NCBI GenBank assembly: GCA_030667965.1
Contig: DAOUUW010000002.1
Coordinates: 1-63,334 of the forward strand
DNA: 63,334 nucleotides
Reading direction: 5' to 3'
From: Deltaproteobacteria bacterium
GTDB lineage: Bacteria; Desulfobacterota; Desulfobulbia; Desulfobulbales; SURF-16
Below, piece after piece: positions 10,501 to 63,284 of this stretch. Position numbers and translations under genes: made by a program. Each line of letters begins with the position of its first letter. Positions within the stretch are counted from its first letter, which is position 1. The notes beneath the pieces are model-generated. The model was given only the letters and a program-made list of their open reading frames with translations, had not been told where the DNA came from and made no database searches.

Positions 10501-11666
10501 CATATCTGTACTGGAGAAGCCATGAGGAGAAACTGCACTCCTTCCCTTTCAGCCTCTCTGATAATACGCTGATTGGCCGGCATCTCTTCCTGTGAACGGG
10601 GATAAATAACCGTTACTTCAGCAACGTTCCGGCGCAACAGACAACGGGCAACTTCCATGGCAATATTATTGCCGCCGATGACCGCAGCACGACGTCCATA
10701 GTCTTTCTTTCTGCCTACGGCAACATCCTTGAGAAAATTTGCCGCAGAAAGAACCTGTGGCAATCTCCCACCGGGAATTTCAAGAGGTTTATCTATACCG
10801 GCACCGGTGGCGATCATGACGGCTGCATACCCATGATCTTTTAAATCCTGAATGGTAAAATCAACGCCCCATTTCTGGCTGAGCTTGACTGAAATGCCCA
10901 TACGCAGAATCATGTTCATTTCATAATCAAGCACATCACGGGGAATCTTATATTCAGGAATGCCGTAACGAAGCATACCTCCGAGTTTCGGGTTGGCTTC
11001 GTAAACGGTTACATCATGTCCCTTGCGGATAAGATAAAATGCTGCTGTCAAACCGGTTGGGCCACCACCTATGACGGCAACCCGCTTACCTGTCGGTTTA
11101 TCGCGGGGAATTTTCAGGTCGATATTGTGGGTCATGCACCAATCAGCAACAAAACGCTTCAAATGGTTTATTGAAACAGGTTCATCAACAAGAATACGGC
11201 GGCAGCGGGTTTCACAGAAACGAGGACAGACACGTCCGACGGAAAAAGGTAGTGGATTACGCTCCATGACAAGCCGCATGGCTTCTTCATATTCACCCTT
11301 ACTCACGTGAGCAATATATCCCTGGACATTGATCTGTCCGGGACAGGTGAAATTACATGGCGCCGTACAGTCGCCGAAATGGCTGGACGAAATAATGGCC
11401 AGCCTGTCCTGACGATGTTTTCTGAGGGCGGCTGTGTCGGTCTGCACCTTCATGCCGTCCTTAGCCAATGCAACGCAGGAGCGAACAGGCTCGTCAATGC
11501 CCTCGATTTCCACGACACACATGCCGCACGGAGCTTCACTATTCTTGCCGTTTGTCGAACAGAGAGTTGGTATTGCTATATCTGCCCGTCCGGCGACTTC
11601 AAGGATTGTCAAGCCGGATTCGGCGACAATTTCCATGCCGTTTATTTCAATATTTATTGTCGACAT
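7530..11666 (-). CDS. fdhA: fused NAD(P)H-linked formate dehydrogenase: 2Fe-2S + GltD/SfrB-like flavin-NAD(P) domain + 4Fe-4S + Mo/W-bisPGD catalytic domain; selenocysteine UGA at 9159-9161
   Basis: ORF 9159..11666 ends ...NNIDHCARL. After the TGA the same frame reads HAPTVASLALTFGSGAMTNS, the start of ORF 7530..9146. CARx-U-H is the FDH active-site Sec context. The N-terminal part has an INGxxI..CGMC 2Fe-2S motif, RVCPRFCE plus VAVIGGGPTGLTAA (GltD-like), and TTCPYCGAGCQL. A GGCC-AGUUU-GGCC hairpin (9132-9144) follows the UGA. Confidence 0.9.
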
Positions 11667-21346: not shown

Positions 21347-23563
21347 CTATCGACCTCTATTTTCAGCCAAGGTGACAATAATTTCATTGGCCTGCCCCAG
21401 GCGCGTTACAAGAGTTTGGAAAAAATGCTTCGCAACATTAGGATGTTTTTCAATAATCTCCATAATCTTGTCACCGGGAAAACGCTTAATGGTCGATCGG
21501 CCCTTGGAAAGAATGGAAGCGGACCTGGGCTCCCCGGATATGGCCGACATCTCACCGAAATACTCGTACGGCTCGGTAATTTCAGCTATTTTCTTACCGT
21601 CTTTAACCACCATCACCCCACCCTGAATCAACTGAAAAAAATCAATATCCTTGTTGCCCTGACGGATGATGACATCGCCGTCTTCATATTTTTTCACATC
21701 AGGATTAACAAGGTAGGCAGGGAGGCTTTCCTCGGTAACAACCGTTCTCCTGAAAACTTCCTCAAGGCTGGTTACTCCCTGAATGGCCTTTCGAATAGCG
21801 GCATTGCGCAGGGGAACCATCCCCTCCTGGATCGCCACCTTACGCAGCTGATCTTCGGGCACTTCGGCACTGATAGCTTTTGCCACCTCATCGGTCACTT
21901 CCATCAATTCAAAAAAGCCAAGCCTGCCCTTATAGCCGCCACCGCGGCATACAAGACACCCCTTCGGGCCATAGAGCTTGAGGCCTTCAATCTGGGCCTC
22001 ACTAAAGCCGTAACTGAGCAAATCCTGTGCCCCGGGGACAGGAACCTCCATCTTGCATTCGGGGCATAACCTCCTCCCGAGTCTTTGTGATTGAATCATT
22101 GTCACCGCCGAGGCCAGCATAAATGACGGAATGCCGATGTCAATAAGACGGCCGATGGTGGCCGGACAGTCATTGGTATGCAGGGTGGAAAAAACCAGAT
22201 GACCGGTCATGGCGGCCTTGATGGCAATTTCCGCTGTTTCCATGTCACGAATCTCACCAACCATGATGATATCAGGATCCTGACGCAAAAAGGCCTTCAG
22301 GGCGGCGGCAAAGGTCATGCCCACCTCCTGGTGCACATTAACCTGGTTGATCCCCTTGAAGTTGAACTCAACAGGGTCTTCAGCAGTTAATATCTTTGTG
22401 TCCTCCTTGTTGAGCGAATTAAGCGCTGAATAAAGGGTTACCGTTTTACCGCTGCCGGTGGGACCGGTGACCAGCACAAGCCCCTGGGGCATATCCAGAC
22501 TTCGCTGCAGGGCCGCATATGTTTCAGGCTCAAAACCGAGCTTGGTCAAATCAACATTAAGGGAGGCCTTATCGAGAATACGCAGAACAATACTTTCACC
22601 AAACAGGGTGGGCAGGCTTGAAACACGGAAATCAACAACCTTGTTTCTGCCGATACGCATCTTTATCCTGCCGTCCTGGGGTACGCGCCTTTCTGTGATA
22701 TCAAGACTTGCCAGAATTTTGATCCTGGAGTTCAGAGCATTTTTGATGCTCAAAGGCAGGTTCATCGATTTATAAAGAGAACCATCAAGACGGTAGCGTA
22801 CCTGCAGAGTCTTTTCATAAGGTTCTATATGGATATCACTGACACCATCCCTCACTGCCTTTATAAGGATACCATTAACCAGTTTGATGATCGGCGCATC
22901 CGAGGCGGAAAACTGCTCCGGTCCATCGAAGTCATCATCCTCGATGGCCATATCTTCAGCAGCCTCGGAAGCAAGGGAGCCGAAATCGTCAATACTGGTG
23001 ACCTCTTCTTCTTCTTCCTCAATATCCTCGTCGACGCCAATAAGCTCGAGGTAATCCTCTTCGCTTATTGTATAATATTTCTTATAGGCCTCATGAATAT
23101 CCCGCTCCGTGGAAACACAGACGGACAAAACCCTTTTGACTTCACTCTGCAACTCTTCAACCGCACTGGTATCAGTGGGTTCAGCCATGGTTATCTGTAG
23201 GGTATTGCCAGTCATGCGCAAAGGGAGCGCACAATATTTTTTTACAATTTCAAAGGGAATAATCTTGAAAACTTCAGGATTGGGCGGTTCTTTTTTAATG
23301 TCAACCGAAGGGAAATTATGGATACGGCTGAGCACATTGAGAATAGTGGACTCTTCAATGAACCCAAGCTTGATAAGGATACTGCCCAGACGCTGGCCTG
23401 ATTTTTTCTGAATGGCCAATGCCTCGTCAAGCTGCCTGGTCAGGATATGCCCTTCCTTCCTGAGAACCTCGCCGATCTTGAGCTTACCCGCTCCGGACTG
23501 GTCTTTAACGGTTGACCTGAGGGCGGATTTTTTATTCTGCATTTTTTGCGCTGGAAAAGCCAT
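21347..23563 (-). CDS. GspE/PilB-family secretion ATPase with N-terminal MshEN-like domain and C-terminal cyclic-nucleotide-binding domain
   Basis: Walker A is VLVTGPTGSGKT, with the GspE core and a tetracysteine motif (CPECK...CLVC). The N-terminus has two RLGxxLLxxGxIxxxxLxxxLxxQ-like repeats (KIGEVLRKEGHILTRQLDEALAIQ, RLGSILIKLGFIEESTILNVLSRI). The C-terminal ~115 aa carry FGEMSAISGEPRSASI, a cNMP phosphate-binding cassette. Confidence 0.85.
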   Translation of the reverse strand: MAFPAQKMQNKKSALRSTVKDQSGAGKLKIGEVLRKEGHILTRQLDEALAIQKKSGQRLGSILIKLGFIEESTILNVLSRIHNFPSVDIKKEPPNPEVFKIIPFEIVKKYCALPLRMTGNTLQITMAEPTDTSAVEELQSEVKRVLSVCVSTERDIHEAYKKYYTISEEDYLELIGVDEDIEEEEEEVTSIDDFGSLASEAAEDMAIEDDDFDGPEQFSASDAPIIKLVNGILIKAVRDGVSDIHIEPYEKTLQVRYRLDGSLYKSMNLPLSIKNALNSRIKILASLDITERRVPQDGRIKMRIGRNKVVDFRVSSLPTLFGESIVLRILDKASLNVDLTKLGFEPETYAALQRSLDMPQGLVLVTGPTGSGKTVTLYSALNSLNKEDTKILTAEDPVEFNFKGINQVNVHQEVGMTFAAALKAFLRQDPDIIMVGEIRDMETAEIAIKAAMTGHLVFSTLHTNDCPATIGRLIDIGIPSFMLASAVTMIQSQRLGRRLCPECKMEVPVPGAQDLLSYGFSEAQIEGLKLYGPKGCLVCRGGGYKGRLGFFELMEVTDEVAKAISAEVPEDQLRKVAIQEGMVPLRNAAIRKAIQGVTSLEEVFRRTVVTEESLPAYLVNPDVKKYEDGDVIIRQGNKDIDFFQLIQGGVMVVKDGKKIAEITEPYEYFGEMSAISGEPRSASILSKGRSTIKRFPGDKIMEIIEKHPNVAKHFFQTLVTRLGQANEIIVTLAENRGR

Positions 23564-31128: not shown

Positions 31129-31173
31129 TTGCAAAAATGTTAGTCTCCTTTAAAGCAGATTGCAGTTCCGCAA
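31129..31173 (+). promoter_or_regulatory. upstream activator sites for promoter P1 (two 14-mers)
   Basis: TTGCAAAAATGTTA lies at 31129-31142 and TTGCAGTTCCGCAA at 31160-31173. These are 125 and 94 nt upstream of the promoter GG. Confidence 0.65.
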
Positions 31174-31252: not shown

Positions 31253-31268
31253 TGGCATGCAAAATGCT
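31253..31268 (+). promoter_or_regulatory. sigma54 -24/-12 promoter P1 (upstream of EBP paralog 1)
   Basis: TGGCATGCAAAATGCT, with GG-N10-GC spacing exact. Confidence 0.7.
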
Positions 31269-31417: not shown

Positions 31418-32872
31418 GTGATCACGAAAAAAACAACACGCCAGGACAGACATGCCCGCCCCGTTTCTTTCGTAACTCCTGCAGATACAACTGCTGTACC
31501 AGACCAGCCAAAGGACGATTTTCGTCAAATCTCAACAGAAACTATCCTTGAAAGTATTTCCTACGGTGTTTTTACCATTGATATGGATTGGCGAATCACC
31601 TCTTTCAATAAAACCGCGGAAGAATTGACCGGCATAAACCGCCTGAACGCTATTGGACGCCGTTGTACTGATATTTTCCGATCCAACATGTGCGGCAAAG
31701 ACTGCGCCATCAAGCAAACATTGGCAACACATACCCCCATTATTGACCGCACCGTTTTTATTCGCAACACAGAGGAGAGACAGATCCCTGTTTCCGTTTC
31801 AACGTCTGTTCTGCATAACAACCAAAATGAAGTTATTGGTGCTGCTCAAATTTTTCGGAACCTGCAGTATTCTGTAAAACTGACAGGCAAAGAAACCAGA
31901 CAAATACACGTCAGTGAGTTGATAACCAGGAACAAGAACATGGGGAGAATTATCAGAATTCTTCCCCAGATTGCTGCCAGCGAATGCCCGGTCCTTATTG
32001 AAGGTGAAAACGGAACAGGCAAAGAATTGCTGGCACGTCTCATCCATACCCTCAGCTGCCGCAACAACAAACCATTTATTTCTATTGACTGCGGAGCTCT
32101 TGCACAGCACCTGCTCGAGACGGAATTATTCGGCAGCGACCCAGAGATACTTACCTGTTCCTGCAAGGTCAGGCCGTGCTGCTTTGAGCGAGCTGAAGGA
32201 AGCACTCTTCATCTTAACGGAATAAACACTCTCAGCCTGCCTGTCCAGGCGCGGCTCTTACAAATTTTACATGAAAAAACCTGCGAACCATACTGCAACG
32301 CAAGTCCTATGCGCACAGATATACGGATGATTAGCTCAAGCACCCGCCGTGTTTCTTCACTTATAAATGAAGGAACATTCCTGCAAAACCTGTACTACCG
32401 GATCAATATTATAAAACTTACTCTTCCGCCTTTACGTAACCGCAAAGAAGATCTCCCAATGCTGATTGATCATTTCATTTCCCAATGCAACCTGTCACAG
32501 AACAAATCCGTCAAGGGCGTCAGTCATGAAACCATGGATCTGTTAATGAGATATGATTTTCCAGACAACATCAGCGAGCTGAAAAACATAATAGAAAATG
32601 CTTTTTTACTGTGCTCCGAAGACCATATAATTCCCGCAAATATTTCAGTAAAACCAAGGAAGAGCACTTTTGTCAAGTCCCAGCCCCTGGCCATGGGAAT
32701 GGCTGTTCAGGCCGTTGAGGCCCAGGCCATCATCGCCGCACTGAAACGAAATAATTACAATAGAAAAGCCGCAGCGCATGAGCTTGGTATTCACAAAAGT
32801 ACGTTTTTCCGCAAAATCAAACATCTCGGCATATCATTGCCACAGGTAAACGACCGCTTCCAAAATTCATAA
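31418..32872 (+). CDS. PAS-domain sigma54 enhancer-binding-protein homolog, paralog 1 (degenerate AAA+ motifs), Fis-type HTH
   Basis: Walker A is LIEGENGTGKE. The AAA+ core is collinear with the NtrC family, and the C-terminal HTH is AAAHELGIHKSTFFRKIKHLGI. It has GAFTGA->EILTCS, Walker B LFLDE->LHLNG, FREDL->FLQNL and GNVRELEN->DNISELKN. GTG start. Confidence 0.85.
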   Translation: MITKKTTRQDRHARPVSFVTPADTTAVPDQPKDDFRQISTETILESISYGVFTIDMDWRITSFNKTAEELTGINRLNAIGRRCTDIFRSNMCGKDCAIKQTLATHTPIIDRTVFIRNTEERQIPVSVSTSVLHNNQNEVIGAAQIFRNLQYSVKLTGKETRQIHVSELITRNKNMGRIIRILPQIAASECPVLIEGENGTGKELLARLIHTLSCRNNKPFISIDCGALAQHLLETELFGSDPEILTCSCKVRPCCFERAEGSTLHLNGINTLSLPVQARLLQILHEKTCEPYCNASPMRTDIRMISSSTRRVSSLINEGTFLQNLYYRINIIKLTLPPLRNRKEDLPMLIDHFISQCNLSQNKSVKGVSHETMDLLMRYDFPDNISELKNIIENAFLLCSEDHIIPANISVKPRKSTFVKSQPLAMGMAVQAVEAQAIIAALKRNNYNRKAAAHELGIHKSTFFRKIKHLGISLPQVNDRFQNS

Positions 32873-32972: not shown

Positions 32973-33018
32973 TTGCATTCATGCAAACATGGTAATATAC
33001 TTTATTGCAGGTACGCAA
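32973..33018 (+). promoter_or_regulatory. upstream activator sites for promoter P2
   Basis: TTGCATTCATGCAA lies at 32973-32986 and TTGCAGGTACGCAA at 33005-33018. These are 122 and 90 nt upstream of the GG. Confidence 0.65.
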
Positions 33019-33093
33019 AGTCCATGAAGAGTCGCAATTATGCCCAAAGAATCAACATTTTGATATCACTACAAAAAAATCGTGTCGCATTTA

Positions 33094-33268: not shown

Positions 33269-33682
33269 ATGAGCGAACTATTAATTCTATTGGCTATAAT
33301 TCCCCTGGCCTGTTACCAGCTGACCAAAAATTTCAAAACTAAGCATAGATGGGCGATGATTGGAGTATCCAGCGGCCTGGTTATTGCTCCAATCAGTTTT
33401 GGACTGCTTCAGTTTACCTACGTGCCTATTATTGGTAAAATCATGGGATTCATTGGTCTTATTTTCAACCTGACTCATGGTTCAGTGGGTTATTTCTGTC
33501 TGGTAGGCAGCGGAGTAATTGACCCGGGCGCCGTGCTTTCAGCCTCACAACTTGTTATGATTAACGTTGTGAATGCGGCCCTTTTTTCCTTCGCTTACGG
33601 AATGATCGGATACTCCGTTGACAAGAAGATCGAAGAGACAAGCCCTCAACCTCAACCGAGCTACAGCACTGTAAAACATTAA
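33269..33682 (+). CDS. small 4-TM membrane protein of unknown function, paralog 1
   Basis: 137 aa with four hydrophobic segments. A good RBS (GGAGGA) lies 6 nt upstream. It has very long identical stretches with ORF 36446..36853 (e.g. VIAPISFGLLQFTYVPIIGK.MGFIGLIFNLTHGSVGYFCLVGSG). Confidence 0.8.
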   Translation: MSELLILLAIIPLACYQLTKNFKTKHRWAMIGVSSGLVIAPISFGLLQFTYVPIIGKIMGFIGLIFNLTHGSVGYFCLVGSGVIDPGAVLSASQLVMINVVNAALFSFAYGMIGYSVDKKIEETSPQPQPSYSTVKH

Positions 33683-33706: not shown

Positions 33707-33743
33707 AAGCAAGTACCGTTGAGACGGTACTTGCTTTTTTTTT
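33707..33743 (+). terminator. Rho-independent terminator after 4-TM gene 1
   Basis: AAGCAAGTACCGT-TGAG-ACGGTACTTGCTT followed by a T run. Confidence 0.85.
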
Positions 33744-34208: not shown

Positions 34209-34267
34209 AATAAAAAAAACTTCCTGCTGAGAATAAACTCAAAACGGCCCATAAAGCGGCTGCATAT

Positions 34268-34312
34268 TTGCAAAAATGTAAATGCAGCACCTGACGGATT
34301 GCAGTTCCGCAA
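34268..34312 (+). promoter_or_regulatory. upstream activator sites for promoter P3
   Basis: TTGCAAAAATGTAA lies at 34268-34281 and TTGCAGTTCCGCAA at 34299-34312, the latter identical to the P1 proximal site. These are 127 and 96 nt upstream of the GG. Confidence 0.65.
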
Positions 34313-34393
34313 TCATGCGCAGTTCCGTTTCTCCCTCTCCTGTGTCAACCAACTTATTGATATCTAAAGACAAAAAAAACAAGCGTAGATTTC

Positions 34394-34409
34394 TGGCACA
34401 CAAAATGCT
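34394..34409 (+). promoter_or_regulatory. sigma54 -24/-12 promoter P3 (upstream of EBP paralog 2)
   Basis: TGGCACACAAAATGCT, with GG-N10-GC exact. The -12 region is part of a 2 x 20-bp tandem duplication (34400-34439). Confidence 0.7.
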
Positions 34410-34685
34410 TTTTACACGAACAAAATGCTTTTTACACGAGTAAACTGCTGGGGTAAATATCCCAGAATAAAGGGATAATATCACGTTTGCTCGGCTAACT
34501 AATCTTTTTTTCCGTCATTGTAGGGCAGCACCTGAGAACAGCCTCTTGAATTTTATTAACCCCAAAAGACTGAAATTTAATGCAACTCAGGTTTTCCAAT
34601 AAGTTAACAAACAGACGACCTCAGCTGGAGATGACGAGACTGGTAATCCTCTCAAGAGAAACAAAGCCCGCAAAAGAGCTTATAC

Positions 34686-36155
34686 GTGAGTGCTAAAAAA
34701 AAAAGGTATTTGGAAAAGGGGAAATCATCCGCCACCTCTGTTGTGTCTGCCGACAACGTTGCAAACGTGAAACAAACATGTCAATTCCGGCAAATTTCAA
34801 CAGACTTAATTATGGAAAGCATTTCCTACGGAATTTTTTCAGTAGATTTGGATTGGAGAATCACGTCTTTCAACAGGACGGCGGAAAAAATCACCGGGAT
34901 TAGCCGCCTGAATGCAATTGGCCGACCCTGTTCAAGTATCTTTCTTTCAAATATGTGCGGAAAGGATTGTGCGGTGCAACAAACATTGTCAACAAAATCT
35001 GCCGTTCTCAACAGGACAGCTTTAATTACCGACTCTCAGGGACGACAAATCCCTATTAGTATTTCAACATCACTTTTGCGTAACTGTAATAACAAAATCA
35101 TAGGATCAGCACAAATTTTCCGAGATATCAGTCAGTCAGCATTTCCCCCAGGTATTGAATCCAGGCAGATACACTTAACAGAATTGGTGAGCAGAAACAA
35201 AATAATGGGGAAAATCATCAAAATACTTCCCCAGATTGCAGCCAGTGAAAGCACTGTCCTCATTGAAGGAGAAAATGGAACCGGCAAAGAAGCGCTGGCA
35301 CACCTTATCCACACCTTCAGCTGTCGCAACAATAAACCCTTTGTGAGCATAGACTGTGGAGCTCTGCCTCCGCACTTGCTTGCGACGGAGTTATACGGCA
35401 ATGAAGACGAGTTCCTCACCTGTTCCAGCAAAGCCAGACCGAGCTGTTTTGACAGGGCTGAAGGAAGCACTCTTTTTCTCGACGAAATAAATAAAATAAG
35501 CTTGCCCGTACAGGAACGACTTCTCAGGATTTTACAGAAGAAAACCTGTGAACCACGTGGCAGCACCAATTCCATGCATACTGATATCCGTGTCATTACT
35601 TCTAGTTCCGATCAACTTTCTTCACTCGTCAAGGAAGGGGCATTTCTGCAAAATCTTTATTATCAGGTCAATATTATCCAACTGCATCTTCCTTCCCTGC
35701 GGGACCGTAAAGAAGATCTTCCCCTGTTAATAGATCATTTTGTCTTCCGGTGGAACAGAATGAAAGGCAAAACCGTTAAAGGCATCAGTCATGAAACAAT
35801 GGATCTGCTCATGAATTATGACTTTCCCGGCAATATCAGTGAACTGAACAAAGTAATAGAACATGCCTTTGCCCTATGCGACGAAGACTACATTCAAACT
35901 TCGCATCTGCCGGAGAAAATAAAACAAGAGGCGCGGATAAAGTCCGATCCTGTGGGAATAGAAACCGCTGTCCAGGCCGTTGAGGCCCAGGCCATTATTG
36001 CGGCACTTAAACGAAATAATTTCAACAGAAAGGCGGCTGCTCTCGACCTGGGCATCCACAAAAGCACCTTTTTCCGCAAAATAAAACATCTGGGCATTGT
36101 TCTGCCGCAGGTTGACGGACGTTTCCGTCAACCTGTAAACGGCAACAACAAATAA
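34686..36155 (+). CDS. PAS-domain sigma54 enhancer-binding-protein homolog, paralog 2 (GAFTGA degenerate, Walker B intact), Fis-type HTH
   Basis: Walker A is LIEGENGTGKE and Walker B is TLFLDEIN. It has GAFTGA->EFLTCS, FLQNLYYQVNI and FPGNISELNK. The HTH is AAALDLGIHKSTFFRKIKHLGI. GTG start. Confidence 0.85.
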   Translation: MSAKKKRYLEKGKSSATSVVSADNVANVKQTCQFRQISTDLIMESISYGIFSVDLDWRITSFNRTAEKITGISRLNAIGRPCSSIFLSNMCGKDCAVQQTLSTKSAVLNRTALITDSQGRQIPISISTSLLRNCNNKIIGSAQIFRDISQSAFPPGIESRQIHLTELVSRNKIMGKIIKILPQIAASESTVLIEGENGTGKEALAHLIHTFSCRNNKPFVSIDCGALPPHLLATELYGNEDEFLTCSSKARPSCFDRAEGSTLFLDEINKISLPVQERLLRILQKKTCEPRGSTNSMHTDIRVITSSSDQLSSLVKEGAFLQNLYYQVNIIQLHLPSLRDRKEDLPLLIDHFVFRWNRMKGKTVKGISHETMDLLMNYDFPGNISELNKVIEHAFALCDEDYIQTSHLPEKIKQEARIKSDPVGIETAVQAVEAQAIIAALKRNNFNRKAAALDLGIHKSTFFRKIKHLGIVLPQVDGRFRQPVNGNNK

Positions 36156-36214: not shown

Positions 36215-36258
36215 TTGCAAACATGCAATATCTAAATTGCATGTTTGCACCCACGCAA
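36215..36258 (+). promoter_or_regulatory. upstream activator sites for promoter P4
   Basis: TTGCAAACATGCAA lies at 36215-36228 and TTGCACCCACGCAA at 36245-36258. An overlapping TTGCATGTTTGCAC lies at 36237-36250. The first two are 122 and 92 nt upstream of the GG. Confidence 0.65.
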
Positions 36259-36335: not shown

Positions 36336-36351
36336 TGGCACACTCCATGCA
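36336..36351 (+). promoter_or_regulatory. sigma54 -24/-12 promoter P4 (upstream of 4-TM protein 2)
   Basis: TGGCACACTCCATGCA, with GG-N10-GC exact. Confidence 0.75.
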
Positions 36352-36445: not shown

Positions 36446-36853
36446 ATGAGCGAACTACTAATTCTTTTAGCGATCATACCTATAGCCTGTTATCAGTTAA
36501 CCAAAACTTTCTCTACTCGGCATCGGTGGATGTTATGCGGTGTTACCACCGGTCTGGTTATCGCCCCAATCAGTTTTGGCCTGCTTCAATTCACCTATGT
36601 ACCGATAATTGGTAAGGTCATGGGATTCATAGGTCTCATTTTCAACCTGACTCATGGTTCGGTGGGTTATTTCTGTCTGGTAGGAAGCGGAATACTTGAT
36701 CCGGGCGTCTTGATTTCAGCCTCACAACTTGTCATGATTAACGTTGTTAATGGGGTCCTTTTTTCCTTCGCTTACGGCATGATCGGATACTCCATTGACA
36801 GGAAGATCGAGGAGACAATCCCTACACGGAGCTACAGCGCTATTAAGCACTAA
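36446..36853 (+). CDS. small 4-TM membrane protein of unknown function, paralog 2
   Basis: 135 aa, collinear with ORF 33269..33682, with RBS GGAGGA. Confidence 0.8.
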   Translation: MSELLILLAIIPIACYQLTKTFSTRHRWMLCGVTTGLVIAPISFGLLQFTYVPIIGKVMGFIGLIFNLTHGSVGYFCLVGSGILDPGVLISASQLVMINVVNGVLFSFAYGMIGYSIDRKIEETIPTRSYSAIKH

Positions 36854-36880: not shown

Positions 36881-36916
36881 AAGCAAGTACCATTGTCGAC
36901 GGTGCTTGCTTTTTTC
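36881..36916 (+). terminator. Rho-independent terminator after 4-TM gene 2 (homologous to 33707-33743)
   Basis: AAGCAAGTACC-ATTGTCGAC-GGTGCTTGCTT followed by a T run. Confidence 0.7.
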
Positions 36917-36949
36917 TGTGATCATAACAGCAACCAGACGGAAATTAAA

Positions 36950-37183
36950 ATGATCAGCACGACGAATACAAAGACAAAAAACGATTCAGCAACCTATAAC
37001 ACCACTTCCGGCAATGCCGATAATATAGCTGACAATGTTAACAACGTGACATTTATCATTTTGATATGTCTGGCCGGTATTATTGGCTTATGGGGTTTTT
37101 TAAGTCTCATAGCCGGACTGGTATACAGTGGAGGAATACTGGATCTTGCTTCGGAATGGTTAGGAGCCGTGATAGGTCTGTAA
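36950..37183 (+). CDS. 77-aa single-pass membrane protein, unknown function
   Basis: I prefer the internal ATG at 36950 to the track start at 36893, which lies inside the terminator hairpin. An Asn/Thr-rich polar N-terminus is followed by one TM (FIILICLAGIIGLWGFLSLIAGLV). A strong terminator follows. Confidence 0.45.
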   Translation: MISTTNTKTKNDSATYNTTSGNADNIADNVNNVTFIILICLAGIIGLWGFLSLIAGLVYSGGILDLASEWLGAVIGL

Positions 37184-37406: not shown

Positions 37407-37460
37407 ATGCAAACATGCAAACAGACTAAATTGTAGAGTTGCAGTCATGCAACTCTACAA
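37407..37460 (+). promoter_or_regulatory. upstream activator sites for promoter P5, proximal site embedded in a perfect 30-bp palindrome
   Basis: ATGCAAACATGCAA lies at 37407-37420 and TTGCAGTCATGCAA at 37439-37452. The latter sits inside TTGTAGAGTTGCA-GTCA-TGCAACTCTACAA (37431-37460). The sites are 125 and 93 nt upstream of the GG. Confidence 0.65.
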
Positions 37461-37681: not shown

Positions 37682-38803
37682 ATGAAAAAAATGACCAGGT
37701 TAACAAAATGTTATGGCTTATTTTTTCTTTTTCTATGCTTCCTGTGGCCATCCGCAGGTTTGGCGATAGAAAACTCGGAATGTATGGATTGCCACAGCGA
37801 TGAGAGCCTCACCAAGGAATGCACGGACAACATATTGCAAACCAGCATTACAGAATCGCTTTATGTTGATGAAGACAAATTCAACCACTCGGTCCACAAT
37901 ATCAACGGCATAACCTGCATTGATTGCCATACCGACATTGAGGAGCTCAACTGGGACGAGGAACTGCCGCACAAGATGTACCTTGAACCGGTCGTCTGCA
38001 CCACATGCCATGAAGAGGAAGGAGAAGCCTACAAGAAAAGCGTTCATATGGAAATTCTCAAAAAGGGCATAACAATGCGCTGCTATGCCTGTCATGGCTA
38101 CCATTATGTTGAATATTCGGAAACGGCAACAGTTGCAGAACGGGGAAACAATTACTGTCTGAAATGCCATAACCCCTATCAGTACCACGAGTGGCTGCCG
38201 GCCAAAGAAGCACATTTTTCCATGGTTGAATGTGTTGTCTGCCATTCTCCAGAAGTACCGAATAAGATCCATCTGAACTTCATTGATCTGGTAAGTAACA
38301 AGCTTTACACCAGCAACGAAATCCTCGATGCACTGGGCGTTGATTACGACGAATTCATGCCTCTGCTTGACACAAACAAAGACGGCATCATTAATTCCTC
38401 TGAACTTGAGAATCTCGCTCTCATGCTCAGACTAAAAAATATTCATGCTGTTTTCCATGTGGAACTCCTGGCAGAGCTGCTACCAATTGCCCATGAGGTA
38501 AAAAGGGGTACGGCAGAACAAGACTGCGTGAAATGTCATTCAGCCAATTCCACTTATTTTGATTCCGTTTCCATTCTCATGACCAGGGATGACGGCACCA
38601 TCGACCGCTATGAAGTGGACAGGGCCGTACTGGAAAGCTACAACCTGAGTCACTTTTACCTGATGTCGGGGACACGGGTGAAACTGCTGGACAAAATAGG
38701 CTTTCTCCTGCTGGCAGGTGGCGCCTGTGGCGCGCTTGGACATTTGACCATCAGAATTTTTACGATCCCGATACGTAGAAAAAGAAAAACTGACAAAAAA
38801 TGA
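37682..38803 (+). CDS. membrane-anchored periplasmic heptaheme c-type cytochrome with an internal EF-hand-like loop
   Basis: It has a signal peptide and seven CxxCH motifs (CMDCH, CIDCH, CTTCH, CYACH, CLKCH, CVVCH, CVKCH). The C-terminal TM is IGFLLLAGGACGALGHLTIRIF. DTNKDGIINSSE matches DxNxDGxIxxxE. Confidence 0.9.
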   Translation: MKKMTRLTKCYGLFFLFLCFLWPSAGLAIENSECMDCHSDESLTKECTDNILQTSITESLYVDEDKFNHSVHNINGITCIDCHTDIEELNWDEELPHKMYLEPVVCTTCHEEEGEAYKKSVHMEILKKGITMRCYACHGYHYVEYSETATVAERGNNYCLKCHNPYQYHEWLPAKEAHFSMVECVVCHSPEVPNKIHLNFIDLVSNKLYTSNEILDALGVDYDEFMPLLDTNKDGIINSSELENLALMLRLKNIHAVFHVELLAELLPIAHEVKRGTAEQDCVKCHSANSTYFDSVSILMTRDDGTIDRYEVDRAVLESYNLSHFYLMSGTRVKLLDKIGFLLLAGGACGALGHLTIRIFTIPIRRKRKTDKK

Positions 38804-38878: not shown

Positions 38879-39496
38879 ATGAATAACGAAAAACGGTTAT
38901 ACGTCCATCCTGGGCCGGTTCGTGTCTGGCACTGGGTAAATGCCTTAGGTTTTGTCATTCTCATTCTCACCGGCTTTCAGATTCGATTTGCGGATATATT
39001 GAATATAATGCCCCTGCAGGATGCCATCACCATACATAACTATGTCGGCTTTACACTCATCGGCAATTACTTTATCTGGCTTATTTACTATCTGAGCACC
39101 GGTAAGATTAAAATATATATCCTGGACGTCCGCACCCTTGTTCCCATGGCTATTAAACAGATGCTGTATTACGGATATGGTATTTTCAGGGGAGATGAAA
39201 ACCCTCACCATATGACCCCGGATAACAAATTTAATGCCCTGCAGCAGCAGGCCTATGCAGCTATCATGCTGATATTTCTGCCGGCCCAGATGCTCTCCGG
39301 TGTCTTTTTATGGAAGGTAAAAGGCTATTCAGACTATATTCACCTGCTCGGAGGAATCAAAACTATAGATACCATCCATGTAATCCTCTTCTTCTTTTTC
39401 GGTTCTTTTGTCATGATCCATTGCTATCTGGCAACATTGGGCCACACACCCCTTGCCCATTTTAAAGCGATGTTCACCGGTTACGAAGACCATTAA
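38879..39496 (+). CDS. dihaem b-type cytochrome, HydC/FdnI/PhsC family (PF01292-like)
   Basis: The N-terminus VHPGPVRVWHWVNALGFVILILTGFQIRF is typical of the family. It has four to five TM segments and four conserved-position His residues. Confidence 0.8.
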   Translation: MNNEKRLYVHPGPVRVWHWVNALGFVILILTGFQIRFADILNIMPLQDAITIHNYVGFTLIGNYFIWLIYYLSTGKIKIYILDVRTLVPMAIKQMLYYGYGIFRGDENPHHMTPDNKFNALQQQAYAAIMLIFLPAQMLSGVFLWKVKGYSDYIHLLGGIKTIDTIHVILFFFFGSFVMIHCYLATLGHTPLAHFKAMFTGYEDH

Positions 39497-39605: not shown

Positions 39606-41258
39606 TTATTTAAACTGGTTCTTCATTTTAACGATGGGCAGGATGATCGTGAAAAGGGCCCCACCCAATGAGCTGTTGCTTGCCTCAATATCTGCGCCAA
39701 GCTTCTGGATAATGCTGTAAGAGATTGCAAGACCAAGCCCTGTACCTTTGCCGGGTTCCTTGGTGGTGAAAAACGGATCAAAAATTTTATCTATTATTTC
39801 GGATTTAATACCAGGTCCGTTATCTTCAAATTTGAGCACAATTTGTTCAACAGTGCTTCTGGTTGTAATCTTTACAACTCCGCCATCTCCTGCGGCATCC
39901 ATGCCGTTGTTTGTCAAATTAAGAATGACCTGCAGCAACTTTGAGGCGTCGGTCATTGTGGTTGGCAGATCTTTTTGCAGATCTTTTTCAATGCTAATTC
40001 TGCTGTGTTTAGCGTCGGTTTGGAGAAAAGAAATTGCCTCTTCCACCACGTCATTCATATTCACGGCTTCCTTTTCAGATTGCATTTTTCGGGAAAATCC
40101 CAACAATCTGTGGGTAACGCTACTTGCCCTTTTCACGTAGTGGCGTATCTTTTTCAGGGACTCCCTGTATTCTTCAGCATTTTTAACATTCAAAGAATCC
40201 TCTTCACTCATCAGATCTTCAATCCAGCCGACCTGGTCGGTAATCAGCTGCAGAGGATTATTCACTTCATGGGCAACGCCACCTGCCAGTCTTCCCAGGG
40301 AAGCCATTTTATCAACTTGCAGCATATGGCTGTCCAGTGCTGCCTTCTCACGATCAGCTGCCTCCATGCCTTTCATCATCCAACGCATCATTAAATTCGA
40401 TATGAGAACAATGATCCATGAAGCAATAAAAATTGAAACCAGCACCATATTGCGGCCACTGGAGAACATGTTAATATCGCTGGTTGATTTGACTTTAACA
40501 ACAAGAAGCCATCCAACGTCTCTAATCCAGCTTGTCACATATAGATGACCTTTAATTTGTTTTACTTCGGTCCCCTCATGAGAATAAACAAGTTCCTTTT
40601 CTTCCTCAGCCAGTGCTACTTGCCCAAATCGGCTGGGCGTCTGAAATTTGCCCTTGTAATTGACAATAAAGGCATCACCGGCGTCTCCTATCTGGGCGCT
40701 TCGTACGAGACCGTTTAAAATCTCAGAATTTATTGTGCTGCGTAACACCCATTTTTTCAAAGGACCGGCAACTGCCACCACGATATGGGGCAATCCACGA
40801 TAACCGGATGAAATATCGCTTATATGACTGCCACTAATCATTACTTCTTGAAACCACTCGGTATCTGCATAATTTTTGCCAACAAGTTTTTGCTCATAAG
40901 GACCGACATATGCTACAAGATCTCCTGAAGCATTAAGCACGCCCAGATCAACAATACCCACATCTCCCAGCGACATGAATACCTTCTCCAGGTCATCCTG
41001 ACTGGTTAAATCATTACAATTGCAAAGTTGAATCAGCTGTTCCAGTAACCCTTTTTGTCCCTTAAGAAAAAAAGAAATGAGCTCCTTTCTGTTTTCCACC
41101 GTTCTTTTCAATCCGACGGCAGTGTTTTCCACATAAGATTTTTCATAAAAAGTTGAGGAGCTCCAACTGATCAGGTACAGAGGGATAATTGACACAAGTA
41201 TCAATATGATTGAAAAATTCCTCCACAACCTCTTATAATAAGTAATGTTCTTCTGCAT
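39606..41258 (-). CDS. Cache-domain sensor histidine kinase, paralog HK1
   Basis: Two TM segments flank a periplasmic Cache-like domain. The H-box is [10 protein letters not shown]. HATPase N and G boxes are [15 protein letters not shown] and GKGTGLGL. Confidence 0.9.
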
Positions 41259-41605: not shown

Positions 41606-42103
41606 TCAGTTTTTGCTAACTCTGAAAGATTCCTGGTCAATGTCGTGCTTTTTTATTTTGTCATATAGAGATTTCCGGGAAATCCCCTGGGAATTATACA
41701 CTGCAGTGATTCTGCCTTTATGAATTTGCAGCGCCGCCTGGATATGCTCCTTTTCCGCTTTTTCAACCACATGTTTTAACAGCACTTTACGTTCAACCGA
41801 ACTTGTGACAGCATCTGCATCATCGTCAACATTAAAAGAGGAATTGCCGAAAATACAAAGTCGGCGGACATGATTTTTTAATTCCCTTACATTACCGGGC
41901 CACACTTGCTCCAGCATATGGTCTATTGTGACCTTATCGAAGGGTTTCACCTCCCGCTTGCTGTCACGGCAATACTCTGCTCTGAAATATTCAGCCAAAA
42001 GCAGAATGTCTGATTTTCGTGAACGTAAAGGCGGCACCTCTATCGGCAGCACATTCAAACGATAAAATAAATCCTCCCGAAAATGCCCTTTCTCAATCGT
42101 CAA
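41606..42103 (-). pseudogene. C-terminal fragment of a canonical sigma54 enhancer-binding protein, 5'-truncated
   Basis: It begins inside the AAA+ domain at GHFREDLFYRLNV, then WPGNVRELKN and a Fis-type HTH. There is no Walker A/B or N-terminal domain. The upstream sequence is an IS256 remnant. Confidence 0.75.
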
Positions 42104-42226: not shown

Positions 42227-42590
42227 TTGATAATGACCCACCAACCGGAACCTACCATAATTGATAAAGTAATTGAAACCATTATTGCCAACGGCATTGA
42301 CGGATTAGGGGAGGCTTTCACTTTACTGTTCAACGAAGCCATGAAAATTGAGCGATCCAAGGTATTACGCGCTGCCCCATGGGAACGAAACGAGGAGCGA
42401 CTGGGACACGCCAACGGCTATAAACCAAAATCCATTAATAGTCGTCTTGGTAAACTGCATTTACAAATTCCACAAGTACGTGGAGATATTGAATTCTATC
42501 CATCATCTTTGGAAAAAGGATTGCGTAGTGAACGTGCGCTGAAGAAAGTGGCCATGGCCGAGATGTACATACAAGGCGGCTCAACCGACA
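42227..42590 (+). pseudogene. IS256-family (Mutator-type) transposase, N-terminal fragment only
   Basis: The typical IS256 N-terminal third is present: RLGHANGYKPKSINSRLGKLHLQIPQVRG..FYPSSLEKGLRSERAL...MAEMYIQG. Similarity is lost after about residue 120 and no DDE domain is present. Confidence 0.75.
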
Positions 42591-42915
42591 AGGCTCCATC
42601 GGAGTGTTATTCTTGCCTGAGCTACATAGCTCAGGGGCAACATCACCGAAGGCTTGTCATTGACGGTCGTAGTCGAACCAAGTTACTTCGGATGTGCCAA
42701 TAAGATGAATTAGTTTTCAACTTTTACAGAATAAATGTTTCTTTATCAAAATTTTTTCATATTAATCTTATGGCAGTCAGCAACGATCGATTAATTGCCG
42801 GCCATAAAACCATGATTGATTCATGGGGTATTAATGATGTCACACCTACTTCGATATCTATAAAGCCTTTTATAAACCGTATGAAAACTCTGCTTTCATA
42901 AAATCAAGCACTGCA

Positions 42916-44562
42916 ATGAACAATAAATATTACGCAAGCCTCCGCAAAAGGTTCTTAATTCTAATAATTGGCGTGTCCCTGACGCCCCTTGTGGGCATCT
43001 CCTGGAGCACAGCCTACTACTTCCATAAGCATGCAATAAAACATGTAACACATGACCTTGAGCGAATGGTCTCTACAAGACAAGAAATTATCACACGTTC
43101 TCTGGAAAACCAGAAAGAACAGTTGGCGAGACTGTTAAGACTGTATTCGTCCGAAGACCTGAAAAACCAGAGCAATCTTGAAAGAATCTTTGTTGCCCTT
43201 TCATCCGACTCCATAATTGACCTGAGCGTGATAGACGGCTCCGGAAACCATGTAGCATACGTCGGACCGTACAGTGAAAAACTCTTAAGCCAAAACTACA
43301 AAGAGACTCAATGGTTTCAGGATGTAATGCATAAAGGCAGCTATATAAGTGATATTTTTAGCGGTTTTCGAGAGGTGCCTCATTTCGTTGTCGCCGTGGT
43401 GAACCCTCTTAGAAATTTGATTTTACGGACTACGATAAATTCCGATTATTACAATTCACTGTTGCGTGGAGCACAAATCTCCGTAAATGGGGATGCATTC
43501 ATTGTCAACCGGCTGGGAGAGCTTCAGACACAAAGAAGGTTCGGTGAAAAAACCATATCTGAGGAAGAAGCGAGATTGCTCACCTTTCATGAAGGGACGC
43601 AAGTCAATTCGATAAAAAATAACCTCTATGTAACAAGCTGGATGAAAGACGGGGAATGGCTTCTGCTGGTCAAGGTTAAAAGAAATTCTGTGCTCAAAAT
43701 GTTCCTTGAAGCACGCAACCTTGATATTGTCCTGCTGATAATCGCTTCGCTGCTGATTATAACCGTTTCAATTATGATTGTGCGTCAAATGGTTAATAAA
43801 ATTGCAAAAGCTGATTACAAAAGAGCCTCGCTGGATAGTCAGATGTTACAGGTTGAAAAGATGGCGTCACTTGGCAGGTTAGCTGCAGGCGTGGCCCATG
43901 AAGTCAACAACCCCCTGCAGCTTATAACAGACCAGGCAGGTTGGATTAATGAACTCATGGACGATGAAGATCCGAAAAAAATTAAAAACATCGTCGAATA
44001 TCAAGCGTCTGTTAAAAAGATACTAAACAATGTGAAAAGAGCCAGCGCCGTCACCCATAAACTGCTTGGATTTTCAAGAAAAATGGAGACGGAAAAAGAA
44101 AACGTTGACATAAATATTCTTGTTCGAGAGACGGTATCCTTTGTTGAAGACGAAGCAAACAAGGAAGAAATCTCCATAAATCTCGATCTGCAGGATGAAA
44201 TACCGGCCACAATGACTGATGCAGCCCAGATTCAGCAGGTATTTTTCAATCTTATTAATAACGGCATGGACGCTGTGGAAAAAGGCGGTTCCATTGATAT
44301 TTCCACCACAAGTGACAACAAAAATATCATAATTTATTTTGCCGATTCCGGGCCTGGAATTGCCGATGCAATCTTAGACAAAATTTTTGATCCTTTCTTT
44401 ACAACTAAAGCTCCGGGTAAAGGAACCGGCCTAGGGTTATCCATCTGCTACAGCATCATTAAAAAATTGGGGGGGGAAATTAATGCAAAAAACAGAGAAA
44501 AGTACGGAAGCGTTTTTACGGTCATACTGCCTATTGTTAATTTAACTAACAGGGTTTCATAG
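42916..44562 (+). CDS. Cache-domain sensor histidine kinase, paralog HK2
   Basis: It is collinear with HK1 and shares long near-identical blocks ([30 protein letters not shown]). The HATPase motifs are complete. Confidence 0.9.
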
Positions 44563-61868: not shown

Positions 61869-63284
61869 CTATGCCAGGCCGTGACGATTCAATTTGCGCC
61901 ACAGGGTTGTCCGGCCCCAACCAAGTATTTTGGCCGCTCTGGAACGATTGCCGCCTGTTTGTTTTAATGCCTCCACAATCATCTCTTTTTCTATCTCTTG
62001 CCAGCTTCCGCTTACAGTTTTTTCTCCGGTTTTGGCGAGAAGCTCCAAAGCCGGCATGGCTTTTTCGGAATGTTCATCTCTTCTTTCATAAGCTGAAATA
62101 TGCGGTTTTCCCTCAACAGGAATAAAGAGATACCTGGGCAGACCCTCCTTCTGTATTTTCTCTCCCTGGCATATATTGACTGCATATTCAACGATATTTC
62201 GCAATTCACGGACATTTCCAGGATAGGCATAGACTGTCAAGATATTAAGAGCCTTAGGGGTATAGCCTTTTATCGACTTGTGCAAACCTGCGCTAAACTC
62301 ACGTACAAAAAAATCCAACAGCAGGCGGATATCCCCTTCCCGTTCTCGCAAAGCCGGTACGTGCAGGCGCAGAACATTGAGACGATAAAAAAGGTCTTCC
62401 CTGAACTCTCCTTTCTTGACCAGTTCCCGCAAAGGCCGATGGGTGGCGGCAATGATACGCACGTTAACATGCACCTTTTTGACTCCCCCCACGGGGAAGA
62501 ATTCCATGTCATCAAGTACCGAGAGAAGTTTAACCTGCAGGGTCAGGGGCAGATCCCCTATCTCGGTGAGAAAAATTGTACCGTCCTGGGCTAGACGGAA
62601 AAGGCCGGGCCTGTCCTTGACCGCCCCGGTAAAAGCCCCCCGGACATGTCCGAACAGTTCCGATTCAAGCAGGGACTCAGGCAGGGCGCCGCAGTTGACC
62701 TTGATAAAGGGATATCGCGATCTTTTTGACGACTTGTGGATGGACTCGGCGATCAAATCTTTGCCCGTTCCCGTCTCTCCAGTGATGAGCACTGAAGCAT
62801 CGGTGTGGGCCAACACCGGCAGGAGTTCAAACATTTCCTGCATTTTAGGGCTATGGCCAAGGATTTCCTCAACGCCGCTCATGGTATGCCGTTTTTTGTC
62901 AAAGGACTGAAGGGACGAGATGTCCTCAAGGAAAACCAGCAACCCGGTCGAATCGCCGGATTCGTTCTTTAAAGACGAAACCGTAAAATGGACCGGTATT
63001 TTTTTGTGATGCCGACTGATAATGTCGCCGGAGATGGAAAGATACTCTTCTGTTTCAATTACATTACGGAACAACTTTCCGTTATTGCCTATATTACTGC
63101 GCAGGATGAAATCAGCATGCACCCCCCTGGCGTCGACATTGGCAAATCCGGTGAGGACTTCAAGGAAACGGTTCATTTCCATTATACAAAGGTCTCTGTC
63201 CAGAATGGCGACGCCATGGGGAACACCATTGAGTATCTCTGTAACGGGAATGTTGTCACAGTTTGCAAAAGATGCTGGTTCCAT
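61869..63284 (-). CDS. PAS-domain sigma54 enhancer-binding protein with canonical GAFTGA
   Basis: Walker A is LITGETGTGKD. ELFGHVRGAFTGA, FREDLFYRLNV and YPGNVRELRN are present. The HTH is AAKILGWGRTTLWRKL. Walker B reads IFLTEIG (Thr instead of Asp). Confidence 0.9.
   Translation of the reverse strand: MEPASFANCDNIPVTEILNGVPHGVAILDRDLCIMEMNRFLEVLTGFANVDARGVHADFILRSNIGNNGKLFRNVIETEEYLSISGDIISRHHKKIPVHFTVSSLKNESGDSTGLLVFLEDISSLQSFDKKRHTMSGVEEILGHSPKMQEMFELLPVLAHTDASVLITGETGTGKDLIAESIHKSSKRSRYPFIKVNCGALPESLLESELFGHVRGAFTGAVKDRPGLFRLAQDGTIFLTEIGDLPLTLQVKLLSVLDDMEFFPVGGVKKVHVNVRIIAATHRPLRELVKKGEFREDLFYRLNVLRLHVPALREREGDIRLLLDFFVREFSAGLHKSIKGYTPKALNILTVYAYPGNVRELRNIVEYAVNICQGEKIQKEGLPRYLFIPVEGKPHISAYERRDEHSEKAMPALELLAKTGEKTVSGSWQEIEKEMIVEALKQTGGNRSRAAKILGWGRTTLWRKLNRHGLA

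Follow-up and report, generated by a model that had tools for sequence, protein, structure and literature searches.

A sigma-54-type enhancer-binding protein with a decayed AAA+ module among predicted sigma-54 promoters of a Deltaproteobacteria cytochrome locus

How does a regulator that has lost its GAFTGA loop come to sit in a locus whose promoters look like sigma-54 promoters? The question is raised by an open reading frame (ORF) at 34686-36155 of contig DAOUUW010000002.1 from a Deltaproteobacteria bacterium (GenBank assembly GCA_030667965.1; 63,334 nucleotides, the whole contig, hereafter the window). This ORF encodes paralogue 2 of a pair of enhancer-binding proteins (EBPs) that we call EBP-A. 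A previous reading of the DNA from its letters alone (the sequence-only reading) had pointed out that EBPs without GAFTGA are tied to sigma-70, yet that the promoters here are of the -24/-12 type. The analysis presented here indicates that paralogue 2 probably senses a signal and occupies enhancers without being able to remodel sigma-54, and that a separate canonical EBP probably carries out the activation.

Motif losses in the AAA+ modules of paralogues 2 and 1

The features of the two paralogues on which the argument turns are as follows.

34686..36155, + strand: EBP-A paralogue 2, a regulator of 489 amino acids with PAS, degenerate AAA+, lid and HTH_8 regions, its GTG start backed by homologue alignment
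34806..35135, + strand: PAS sensor domain with three Cys (C82, C91, C95) within GRPCSSIFLSNMCGKDC at 34920-34976
35187..35684, + strand: AAA+ (Sigma54_activat) domain, predicted fold kept and functional motifs decayed
35268..35291, + strand: Walker A, GENGTGKE, intact
35409..35426, + strand: L1 loop, EFLTCS at the GAFTGA position in an ungapped alignment to 53 canonical homologues, Thr alone kept
35469..35492, + strand: Walker B, TLFLDEIN, intact
35637..35675, + strand: arginine-finger segment GAFLQNLYYQVNI, both Arg lost
35820..35852, + strand: sensor II segment DFPGNISELNK, Arg replaced by Ser
35976..36086, + strand: Fis-type helix-turn-helix (HTH; …LGIHKSTFFRKIK), 77-89% identity within the degenerate clade described below
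31418..32872, + strand: EBP-A paralogue 1, 484 amino acids, 63% identical to paralogue 2

Pfam assigned PAS_9, Sigma54_activat (PF00158), AAA_lid_14 and HTH_8 to paralogue 2, which is the order of PAS, AAA+, lid and Fis-type HTH found in canonical PAS-type EBPs such as NtrC, NifA and ZraR. The PF00158 match (E 2e-47, span 2-167/168) scored 161 bits, compared with 229 bits for the canonical third EBP of the window, and the PDB sequence matches included ZraR (1ojl, E 3e-66), NtrC1, FleQ and PspF. An AlphaFold2 model of paralogue 2 had a mean predicted local distance difference test score (pLDDT) of 80.6, exceeding 85 across most of the AAA+ core and falling below 50 inside the AAA+ domain only at the tip of L1 (residues 243-247); further low-confidence segments were the N-terminus, the linker between PAS and AAA+, and the C-terminus. 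In this model the AAA+ fold is retained.

To tabulate the motifs, an alignment of 60 sequences was used, consisting of paralogue 2, 53 canonical homologues and six further degenerate ones. All canonical homologues (53/53) agree on Walker B DE, on Arg at sensor II and at each arginine-finger position and, within the loop, on A-F-T plus the closing A. Near-invariance was seen for the first loop G and the Asn preceding the loop (52/53 each), for the Arg of GRF (50/53) and for Asn at sensor I (48/53). Measured against this set, Walker B was the only tabulated key position unchanged in paralogue 2. The translation and the ungapped alignment bore out the sequence-only reading on Walker A and B, on EFLTCS at the GAFTGA position, on the sensor II context GNISELNK with its Arg-to-Ser change, and on Thr as the one GAFTGA residue kept by both paralogues (EFLTCS and EILTCS). 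That reading had missed that both arginine fingers are gone (FLQNLYYQVN, where canonical proteins have FRxDLYYRxN), that the sensor I Asn (RVITSSS), the GRF Arg (PSCF) and the glutamate-switch Asn (SIDC) are changed, and that Walker B is dead in paralogue 1 (TLHLNGIN). Compared with canonical EBPs, then, paralogue 2 has replacements in GAFTGA, at both arginine fingers, at the sensor I Asn and sensor II Arg, in the GRF motif and at the Asn of the glutamate switch. In the PspF/NtrC1 family such residues serve ATP hydrolysis and its coupling to L1. Open-complex formation by PspF is abolished by a change at any single GAFTGA position (PMC3467059, Table 1). Of the features expected of a functional sigma-54 activator, paralogue 2 has the PF00158 domain, Walker A and B, and a C-terminal HTH_8 with putative enhancer sites upstream of -24/-12 promoters; it lacks a proper L1, the arginine fingers, and sensors I and II.

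Paralogue 1 combines its dead Walker B with L1 EILTCS and sensor II DNISEL, and it has kept the second arginine finger (FLQNLYYRIN). Neither paralogue has Arg at sensor II, Asn at sensor I, the first of the arginine fingers or the GRF Arg. The L1 region of paralogue 1 (32144-32161 and downstream) is also rich in Cys, with four per nine residues (EILTCSCKVRPCCF); the corresponding stretch of paralogue 2 has two (EFLTCSSKARPSCF).

The ends of the protein are better preserved. The HTH is the best-conserved part of EBP-A, and the three Cys of the PAS motif C-x8-C-x3-C are invariant in the 60 aligned EBP-A-family proteins. The motif also occurs in the canonical relatives, in EBP-B (see below) and in other GAFTDA-type EBPs, with a variant spacing at locus L119, and it suggests a metal or redox sensor.

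Promoters and enhancers of the locus

The sequence TGGCAYN5WTGC was found exactly five times in the 63 kb, at 31253, 33094, 34394, 36336 and 37531, each time on the + strand and between genes, where 1.0 match was expected and 0/100 shuffled sequences reached five. These putative promoters, P1-P5, precede in order paralogue 1, small membrane protein 1, paralogue 2, small membrane protein 2 and the cytochrome c gene. Seven separate sites in the window match the palindrome TTGCA-N4-YGCAA (10 matches on both strands against 0.75 expected, equalled by no shuffle). All seven start 76 to 125 bp upstream of a -24 element, and where they are paired their centres lie 30-32 bp apart.

31160-31173, + strand: enhancer TTGCAGTTCCGCAA for P1
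31253-31267, + strand: P1, -24/-12 promoter TGGCATGCAAAATGC
32973-32986 and 33005-33018, + strand: two P2 enhancers
33050-33062, + strand: IHF-like (integration host factor) site AATCAACATTTTG between the P2 enhancers and P2
33094-33108, + strand: P2, -24/-12 promoter
34267-34280, + strand: weaker half-site TTTGCAAAAATGTA near the P3 enhancer
34299..34312, + strand: P3 enhancer, palindrome TTGCAGTTCCGCAA, some 95 bp before the -24 element
34347..34359, + strand: IHF-like site AACCAACTTATTG between enhancer and P3, named for its similarity to WATCAANNNNTTR
34394..34408, + strand: P3, -24/-12 promoter TGGCACACAAAATGC upstream of paralogue 2, conserved before orthologues
36215-36228 and 36245-36258, + strand: two P4 enhancers
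36336-36350, + strand: P4, -24/-12 promoter
37439-37452, + strand: P5 enhancer TTGCAGTCATGCAA
37486-37498, + strand: IHF-like site of P5
37531-37545, + strand: P5, -24/-12 promoter

The sites between enhancer and promoter are designated IHF-like from their similarity to the consensus. With an IHF-like site and enhancers starting 76 to 125 bp ahead of the -24 element, the arrangement resembles that at classic NtrC promoters such as glnAp2. The locus has 24 pairs of sigma-70-like hexamers against 18.8 ± 4.3, which is no enrichment, and inspection by eye showed no consistent placement of any of them with respect to the enhancers. Since -24/-12 elements, distal enhancers and IHF-like sites occur together without sigma-70 enrichment, the statement of the sequence-only reading about the promoters holds, and by its predicted elements the layout is the classical sigma-54 looping architecture. 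A perfect 20-nucleotide tandem duplication (ACAAAATGCTTTTTACACGA twice, 34400-34439) begins within P3 and copies its -12 element (ATGC).

The genes behind the promoters belong to a cluster conserved among relatives, comprising the regulator, a membrane protein of ~135 amino acids, a protein of 70-96 amino acids, a multihaem cytochrome c of ~370 amino acids and a cytochrome b. Peculiar to the window is a tandem duplication of the module of regulator and small protein, which gives five promoters compared with three elsewhere.

33269..33682, + strand: small membrane protein 1, 137 amino acids, no Pfam or NCBIfam match, present in all related clusters
33707-33736: strong terminator after small protein 1
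36446..36853, + strand: small membrane protein 2, 135 amino acids, paralogue of small protein 1 (81% nucleotide identity)
36893..37183, + strand: small conserved ORF, 96 amino acids, one hydrophobic stretch
37682..38803, + strand: haem c cytochrome with seven CXXCH; its hydrophobic ends, judged by eye, are a probable N-terminal signal peptide and C-terminal anchor
38879..39496, + strand: membrane cytochrome b (Ni_hydr_CYTB / PhsC-like)

Stepwise decay of the AAA+ module in relatives, and the candidate partner EBP-B

Relatives came from three sources: a collection of 5.8 billion proteins, a set of species-representative genomes, and metagenomes scanned for the pattern of two palindromes plus promoter. 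The protein search returned no sequence more than 56% identical from outside the window and no close orthologue with E(F/I)LTCS, and paralogue 2 is the representative of its own cluster at 50% identity, so that searching the library of representatives gave a score gap and no further relatives. The majority of the matches were canonical; five lacked GAFTGA (P0024, P0034, P0047, P0049 and P0072), and these have GNIS/TEL at sensor II and Cys in place of the GRF Arg. The species-representative scan added L069 and L071, in which L1 is deleted and sensor II reads GNIDEL. Canonical EBP-A proteins head the same cluster at L004 (Candidatus Desulfobia pelagia, protein P0012), L008 and L075, and the metagenome scan supplied ~12 more cluster loci. 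All degenerate loci have the same three promoters and enhancers, before the regulator, the small-protein gene and the cytochrome gene. At the three canonical EBP-A loci the strict enhancer and promoter patterns were mostly unmatched; at L004, TGGTCC-N5-TTGC and similar sequences and GTCGCA/TGCGAC repeats were seen by eye and were not used as support.

The degenerate EBP-A clade consists of the window pair, P0024, P0034, P0047, P0049, P0072, L069, L071 and L126. Its derived states, all present in paralogue 2, are the replacement of the sensor II Arg by Ser, Thr or Asp, of the GRF Arg by Cys, and of GGT by GST before Walker B; its members also share the absence of GAFTGA, the HTH sequence GIHKSTFFRKIK and the place at the head of the cluster. 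In neighbour-joining trees, the method used throughout, monophyly was recovered in 187/200 bootstraps on PAS, lid and HTH, in 200/200 on the full length and in 101/200 on PAS and HTH alone. The window pair is the earliest branch, sister to the rest of the degenerate clade, and the nearest canonical relatives, those around P0012 (56%), form a separate sister group. Since one clade takes in the window pair, the remaining degenerate members and the AAA-less proteins described below, the loss of sigma-54-related residues is, on these trees, ancestral to the clade and not private to the pair.

This bears on two further points of the sequence-only reading. It had taken the divergence of the loop to be specific to the duplicated pair and not a property of the genome. 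The second half stands, because the same window also encodes a canonical EBP and part of another, and the third EBP (61869-63284, minus strand) does have the perfect GAFTGA ascribed to it; the first half does not, the loss being shared by the clade (187/200 and 200/200 bootstraps). Only the E(F/I)LTCS string is private to the pair; positional orthologues, too, have lost GAFTGA, changed the sensor II Arg and carry Cys for the GRF Arg. As to whether E(F/I)LTCS is conserved in orthologues, the survey of relatives found it in none, the L1 sequence being different in every clade member. A loop that is not conserved across the clade points to relaxed constraint and speaks against a new motif contacting sigma-54. 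Canonical GAFTGA in orthologues, which that reading would have taken as a sign of local sequence error, does not apply here, as the P0012 group is a separate sister and both paralogues are intact.

The decay is concentrated in the AAA+ module. In identity to P0012 the AAA+ domain is the most conserved part of the canonical relatives (72-84%), whereas in the degenerate clade it reaches 33-51%, below that clade's own PAS (54-63%) and HTH (72-81%); the AAA+ domain thus evolves faster than PAS and HTH in the degenerate clade, the reverse of the canonical relatives. At L126 (2-925) an internal deletion has taken out the arginine-finger segment of a degenerate EBP-A (…GVRLIAATSRDDRTRQIHCITLKLPPLR…). 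Nested in the same clade, by neighbour-joining placement with no support value for the nesting, are members that have lost AAA+ and lid entirely, so that PAS is joined directly to HTH. One junction is common to L073, L092 and L134, and the junctions of L119 and L167 differ from it. A search with one such protein brought up PAS-HTH_8 proteins of 188-235 amino acids that fall, at a 90% identity threshold, into at least 18 clusters; more than one type of junction is represented. The family is annotated only as 'PAS domain protein'. Examples are the following.

L073, 11470-12069, - strand: AAA-less PAS-HTH_8 protein
L092, 6624-7310, - strand: AAA-less PAS-HTH_8 protein
L119, 3488-4345, - strand: AAA-less PAS-HTH_8 protein
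L165, 9001-9600: AAA-less PAS-HTH_8 protein
L167, 9001-9696: AAA-less PAS-HTH_8 protein

At the AAA-less loci the three sigma-54 promoters and their enhancers are entirely kept. These proteins of sister lineages agree with EBP-A in position, PAS Cys motif, HTH (GIHKSTFFRKIK), promoters and enhancers, and they lack AAA+; compared with them, paralogue 2 looks like an intermediate that has kept the fold and the P-loop. Two further loci, L120 and L150, have the cluster with enhancers and sigma-54 promoters, and neither EBP-A nor EBP-B was seen within their 13-kb stretches.

As regards selection, the only usable estimate of the ratio of non-synonymous to synonymous substitution rates (dN/dS) was that between L069 and L071, 0.21; for estimates by domain the two differ at too few sites. 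Because dS between the window paralogues is saturated (dN 0.26), purifying selection is read from L069 and L071 only. With intact ORFs, this dN/dS value and a confidently modelled AAA+ core, the gene is, by its sequence, maintained and not dying.

If EBP-A has lost its motor, the activator should be sought elsewhere, and at many loci a candidate adjoins the cytochrome b gene. At L002 a canonical EBP, here called EBP-B, follows the cluster; it has GAFTGA, FRSDLFFRLN, GNIRELEN, the PAS motif C-x8-C-x3-C and the HTH LGIDKTTLWRKMKKY. Orthologues 66-75% identical to it stand beside the cluster at L163, L069, L071, L137, L073, L092, L165, L167 and L168. EBP-B was present at 9/11 degenerate or AAA-less loci with enough flank (L002, L163, L069, L071, L073, L092, L165, L167 and L168) and at 0/3 canonical EBP-A loci (L004, L008 and L075). 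The recognition helices are similar, HKSTFFRKIK in EBP-A, [D/E]KTTLWRKMK in EBP-B and H[P/Q]STLWRKMK in other Cys-PAS EBPs, which with their related helices also adjoin the same kind of palindrome. Given this similarity, EBP-A and EBP-B may read the same sites.

Two other genes of the window were considered and rejected. The third EBP (61869-63284, - strand) is not a convincing missing activator, being 37% identical to EBP-B, without the Cys-PAS motif and with a different HTH. Besides its perfect GAFTGA it has both arginine fingers and GNVREL, and its Walker B reads TIFLTEIG, with Thr where all the aligned homologues of the EBP-A family (53/53) have Asp. The truncated EBP at 41606-42103 (- strand) does not look like a remnant of EBP-B, at 30% identity and with a different HTH. 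It is a 165-amino-acid C-terminal fragment of a canonical EBP with FREDLFYRLNV, WPGNVREL and its own HTH, it adjoins an IS256-family transposase fragment (42227-42703, + strand), and the two are flanked by inverted, paralogous dCache histidine kinases (39606-41258, - strand; 42916-44562, + strand).

Proposed role of paralogue 2, and the alternatives

In the proposed mechanism the Cys-bearing PAS domains of paralogues 2 and 1 would still sense a signal, and the two proteins would most likely bind the TTGCA-N4-YGCAA enhancers of all five sigma-54 promoters, the targets being the promoters of paralogue 2 itself, of its twin, of both small membrane-protein genes and of the gene pair for cytochromes c and b. 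The AAA+ module would no longer engage or remodel sigma-54, and open complexes at P1-P5 would be driven by a separate canonical EBP, namely EBP-B in relatives and, here, a protein encoded outside the 63-kb window. From the enhancer, paralogue 2 would tune activation. It might do so as an antagonist that competes for sites, a natural dominant-negative, in which case enhancer competition would create negative feedback, since its own gene lies behind a sigma-54 promoter. It might instead be a helper that targets the canonical ATPase or co-assembles with it; mixed PspF rings containing L1-defective subunits are ~55% active (PMC3467059). The AAA-less lineages are instructive, because their retained sigma-54 promoters and enhancers require some other EBP; EBP-B suggests itself there, and by homology it is likely to have the same part here. 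Observed are the loss of motifs, the layout of promoters and enhancers with its conservation among relatives, the graded decay of AAA+ up to its deletion, and the company of EBP-B; that EBP-A binds the palindromes, that EBP-B is the activator, and in which direction EBP-A acts, we infer.

Several points weigh against this proposal. The binding of EBP-A to the palindromes is deduced from the position of the sites and the conservation of the HTH. The search for EBP-B in this organism covered the window, and the scanned genome collection consisted of other species; no EBP-B orthologue was found in the 63-kb window, nor within 10 kb at L001, which are the two exceptions among the 11 loci, and as the window has none the partner is hypothetical for this organism. 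The difference between 9/11 and 0/3 consists of small counts from loci that are phylogenetically non-independent. Paralogue 2 is moreover the least decayed member of the clade, with Walker A and B, ELYG, the Thr and a loop-adjacent Phe kept and EPRGS at L2, and some residual activity may persist. Finally, an EBP of Desulfovibrio vulgaris with GVATGV in place of GAFTGA is predicted to serve sigma-54 promoters still (PMC4641369).

The last two points also favour an alternative that we regard as unlikely: that paralogues 1 and 2 form a mixed ring which activates sigma-54 directly and independently of GAFTGA, the E(F/I)LTCS loops touching sigma-54 region I. The ATP sites of such a ring would be composite, with Walker A and B from paralogue 2 and the second arginine finger from paralogue 1. 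The defects are indeed complementary, paralogue 2 having Walker B and no finger and paralogue 1 the second finger and no Walker B. Both genes have been retained since an old duplication (63% identity), both lie behind sigma-54 promoters with enhancers at the classic distances, and the window holds no canonical partner; the loops are hydrophobic and keep their Thr, paralogue 2 is the least eroded member of the clade, and DVUA0100, the D. vulgaris protein, is a predicted precedent for a divergent loop (PMC4641369). Against this stand the four residues missing from both paralogues (sensor II Arg, sensor I Asn, first arginine finger and GRF Arg), the single-copy relatives, which conserve neither the loop nor either finger, and those relatives that have deleted the loop or the whole AAA+ domain yet keep the same promoters. 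Single GAFTGA substitutions kill activation by PspF (PMC3467059), and the AlphaFold2 confidence at the tip of the loop is below 50. The extended version, in which the pair is a working heteromeric activator that grips sigma-54 through its Cys-rich E(F/I)LTCS…C loops, perhaps depending on redox state, is in our view very improbable; were it true, the pair would be the first GAFTGA-independent route to sigma-54 activation.

Quite unlikely, too, is that paralogue 2 is an atypical EBP of the sigma-70 type, like TyrR, NtrX, VpsR or R. capsulatus NtrC, which would activate or repress sigma-70 promoters within this intergenic DNA, with the -24/-12 elements serving another regulator or being incidental. 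The conserved Walker A would fit ATP-binding-dependent oligomerisation as in TyrR. Every characterised EBP without GAFTGA works at sigma-70 promoters, the group including TyrR, PhhR, HupR, HsfA, NtrX, VpsR and the NtrC proteins of R. capsulatus and Caulobacter, and Walker B or other ATPase residues are often altered in it (PMC6158489; bioRxiv 10.1101/2023.06.06.543975). However, the hexamer counts given above (24 against 18.8 ± 4.3) and the lack of consistent placement by eye speak against sigma-70 targets, the -24/-12 elements, the paired enhancers 76 to 125 bp upstream and the IHF-like site are kept at ~50% protein identity, and the geometry is that of sigma-54 looping and not of class I or class II sigma-70 activation. 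While paralogue 2 shares the loss of GAFTGA with the atypical EBPs, the conserved partners of this gene across the clade are sigma-54 promoters with distal enhancers. Paralogue 2 is also less similar in sequence to TyrR, NtrX and VpsR than to canonical EBPs: its NCBIfam scores are far under the cut-offs (TyrR 167 against 576, NtrX 205 against 600), it is not orthologous to any named atypical EBP, and its nearest relatives are canonical Cys-PAS EBPs. Judged by its sequence, it would work most like an atypical EBP but fails that group's link to sigma-70.

That the gene is a decaying pseudogene or a sequence or assembly error without function, as the many lost catalytic residues and the nearby insertion sequence (IS) fragment and truncated EBP might suggest, is effectively excluded by two intact ORFs (484 and 489 amino acids), the same state in independent assemblies from several sources, strongly conserved PAS and HTH, the L069/L071 dN/dS of 0.21, and a conserved promoter and enhancer upstream of the gene.

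The idea of an enhancer-bound protein that leaves remodelling to a canonical partner has partial parallels. HrpR/HrpS of Pseudomonas syringae and FleQ/FleT of Rhodobacter sphaeroides are cases in which two paralogous EBP-type proteins act at the same sigma-54 promoters and one partner may be incomplete. Unlike paralogue 2, both HrpR and HrpS keep GAFTGA; FleT has no DNA-binding domain, whereas here it is the DNA-binding partner that has lost the motor functions, and a contact between EBP-A and EBP-B is hypothetical. The D. vulgaris protein DVUA0100, which keeps G, T and G in GVATGV, comes closest as a predicted precedent for sigma-54 promoters served by an EBP with a divergent loop, and DVU3142/Ohc, a fully canonical sigma-54 EBP, is a functional parallel in that it controls a cytochrome c / cytochrome b membrane complex (PMC4641369). 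Our literature searches, which were not aimed at these subjects, returned no description of the clade, of its PAS-HTH_8 derivatives or of the pairing of EBP-A with EBP-B.

The clade breaks the textbook link between loss of GAFTGA and a switch to sigma-70: the motor is lost stepwise up to full deletion, enhancers and sigma-54 promoters stay, and a second, intact EBP usually lies beside the operon. The automatic label 'sigma-54-interacting transcriptional regulator' is probably wrong for it. If the proposed role is right, evolution has here converted a sigma-54 activator into a modulator bound at the enhancer, whether antagonist or targeting subunit, and has put an extra regulatory layer into a system usually described as one EBP per promoter. 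The graded natural series of canonical, decayed and AAA-less proteins allows one to ask which AAA+ features serve functions beyond sigma-54 remodelling. The cytochromes c and b, the small membrane proteins and the Cys-PAS domain suggest that in uncultured Desulfobulbales-like bacteria a respiratory module is under redox control.

Elsewhere in the window, a Wood-Ljungdahl block on the - strand (4310-25543) contains CODH/ACS subunits, an MTHFR-CdhD fusion, FolD and formate-tetrahydrofolate ligase, after which come ThyX, NifS/NifU-like genes and UvrC. At 21347-23563 (- strand) lies a T2SSE/MshE-type secretion ATPase with an MshEN domain and a C-terminal cyclic-nucleotide-binding domain. Two ORFs at 7530-11666 (- strand) together encode a formate-dehydrogenase-like molybdopterin enzyme; the in-frame TGA that separates them (9159-9161) lies in the motif DHCARL-U-HAPTVA and is probably a selenocysteine codon.

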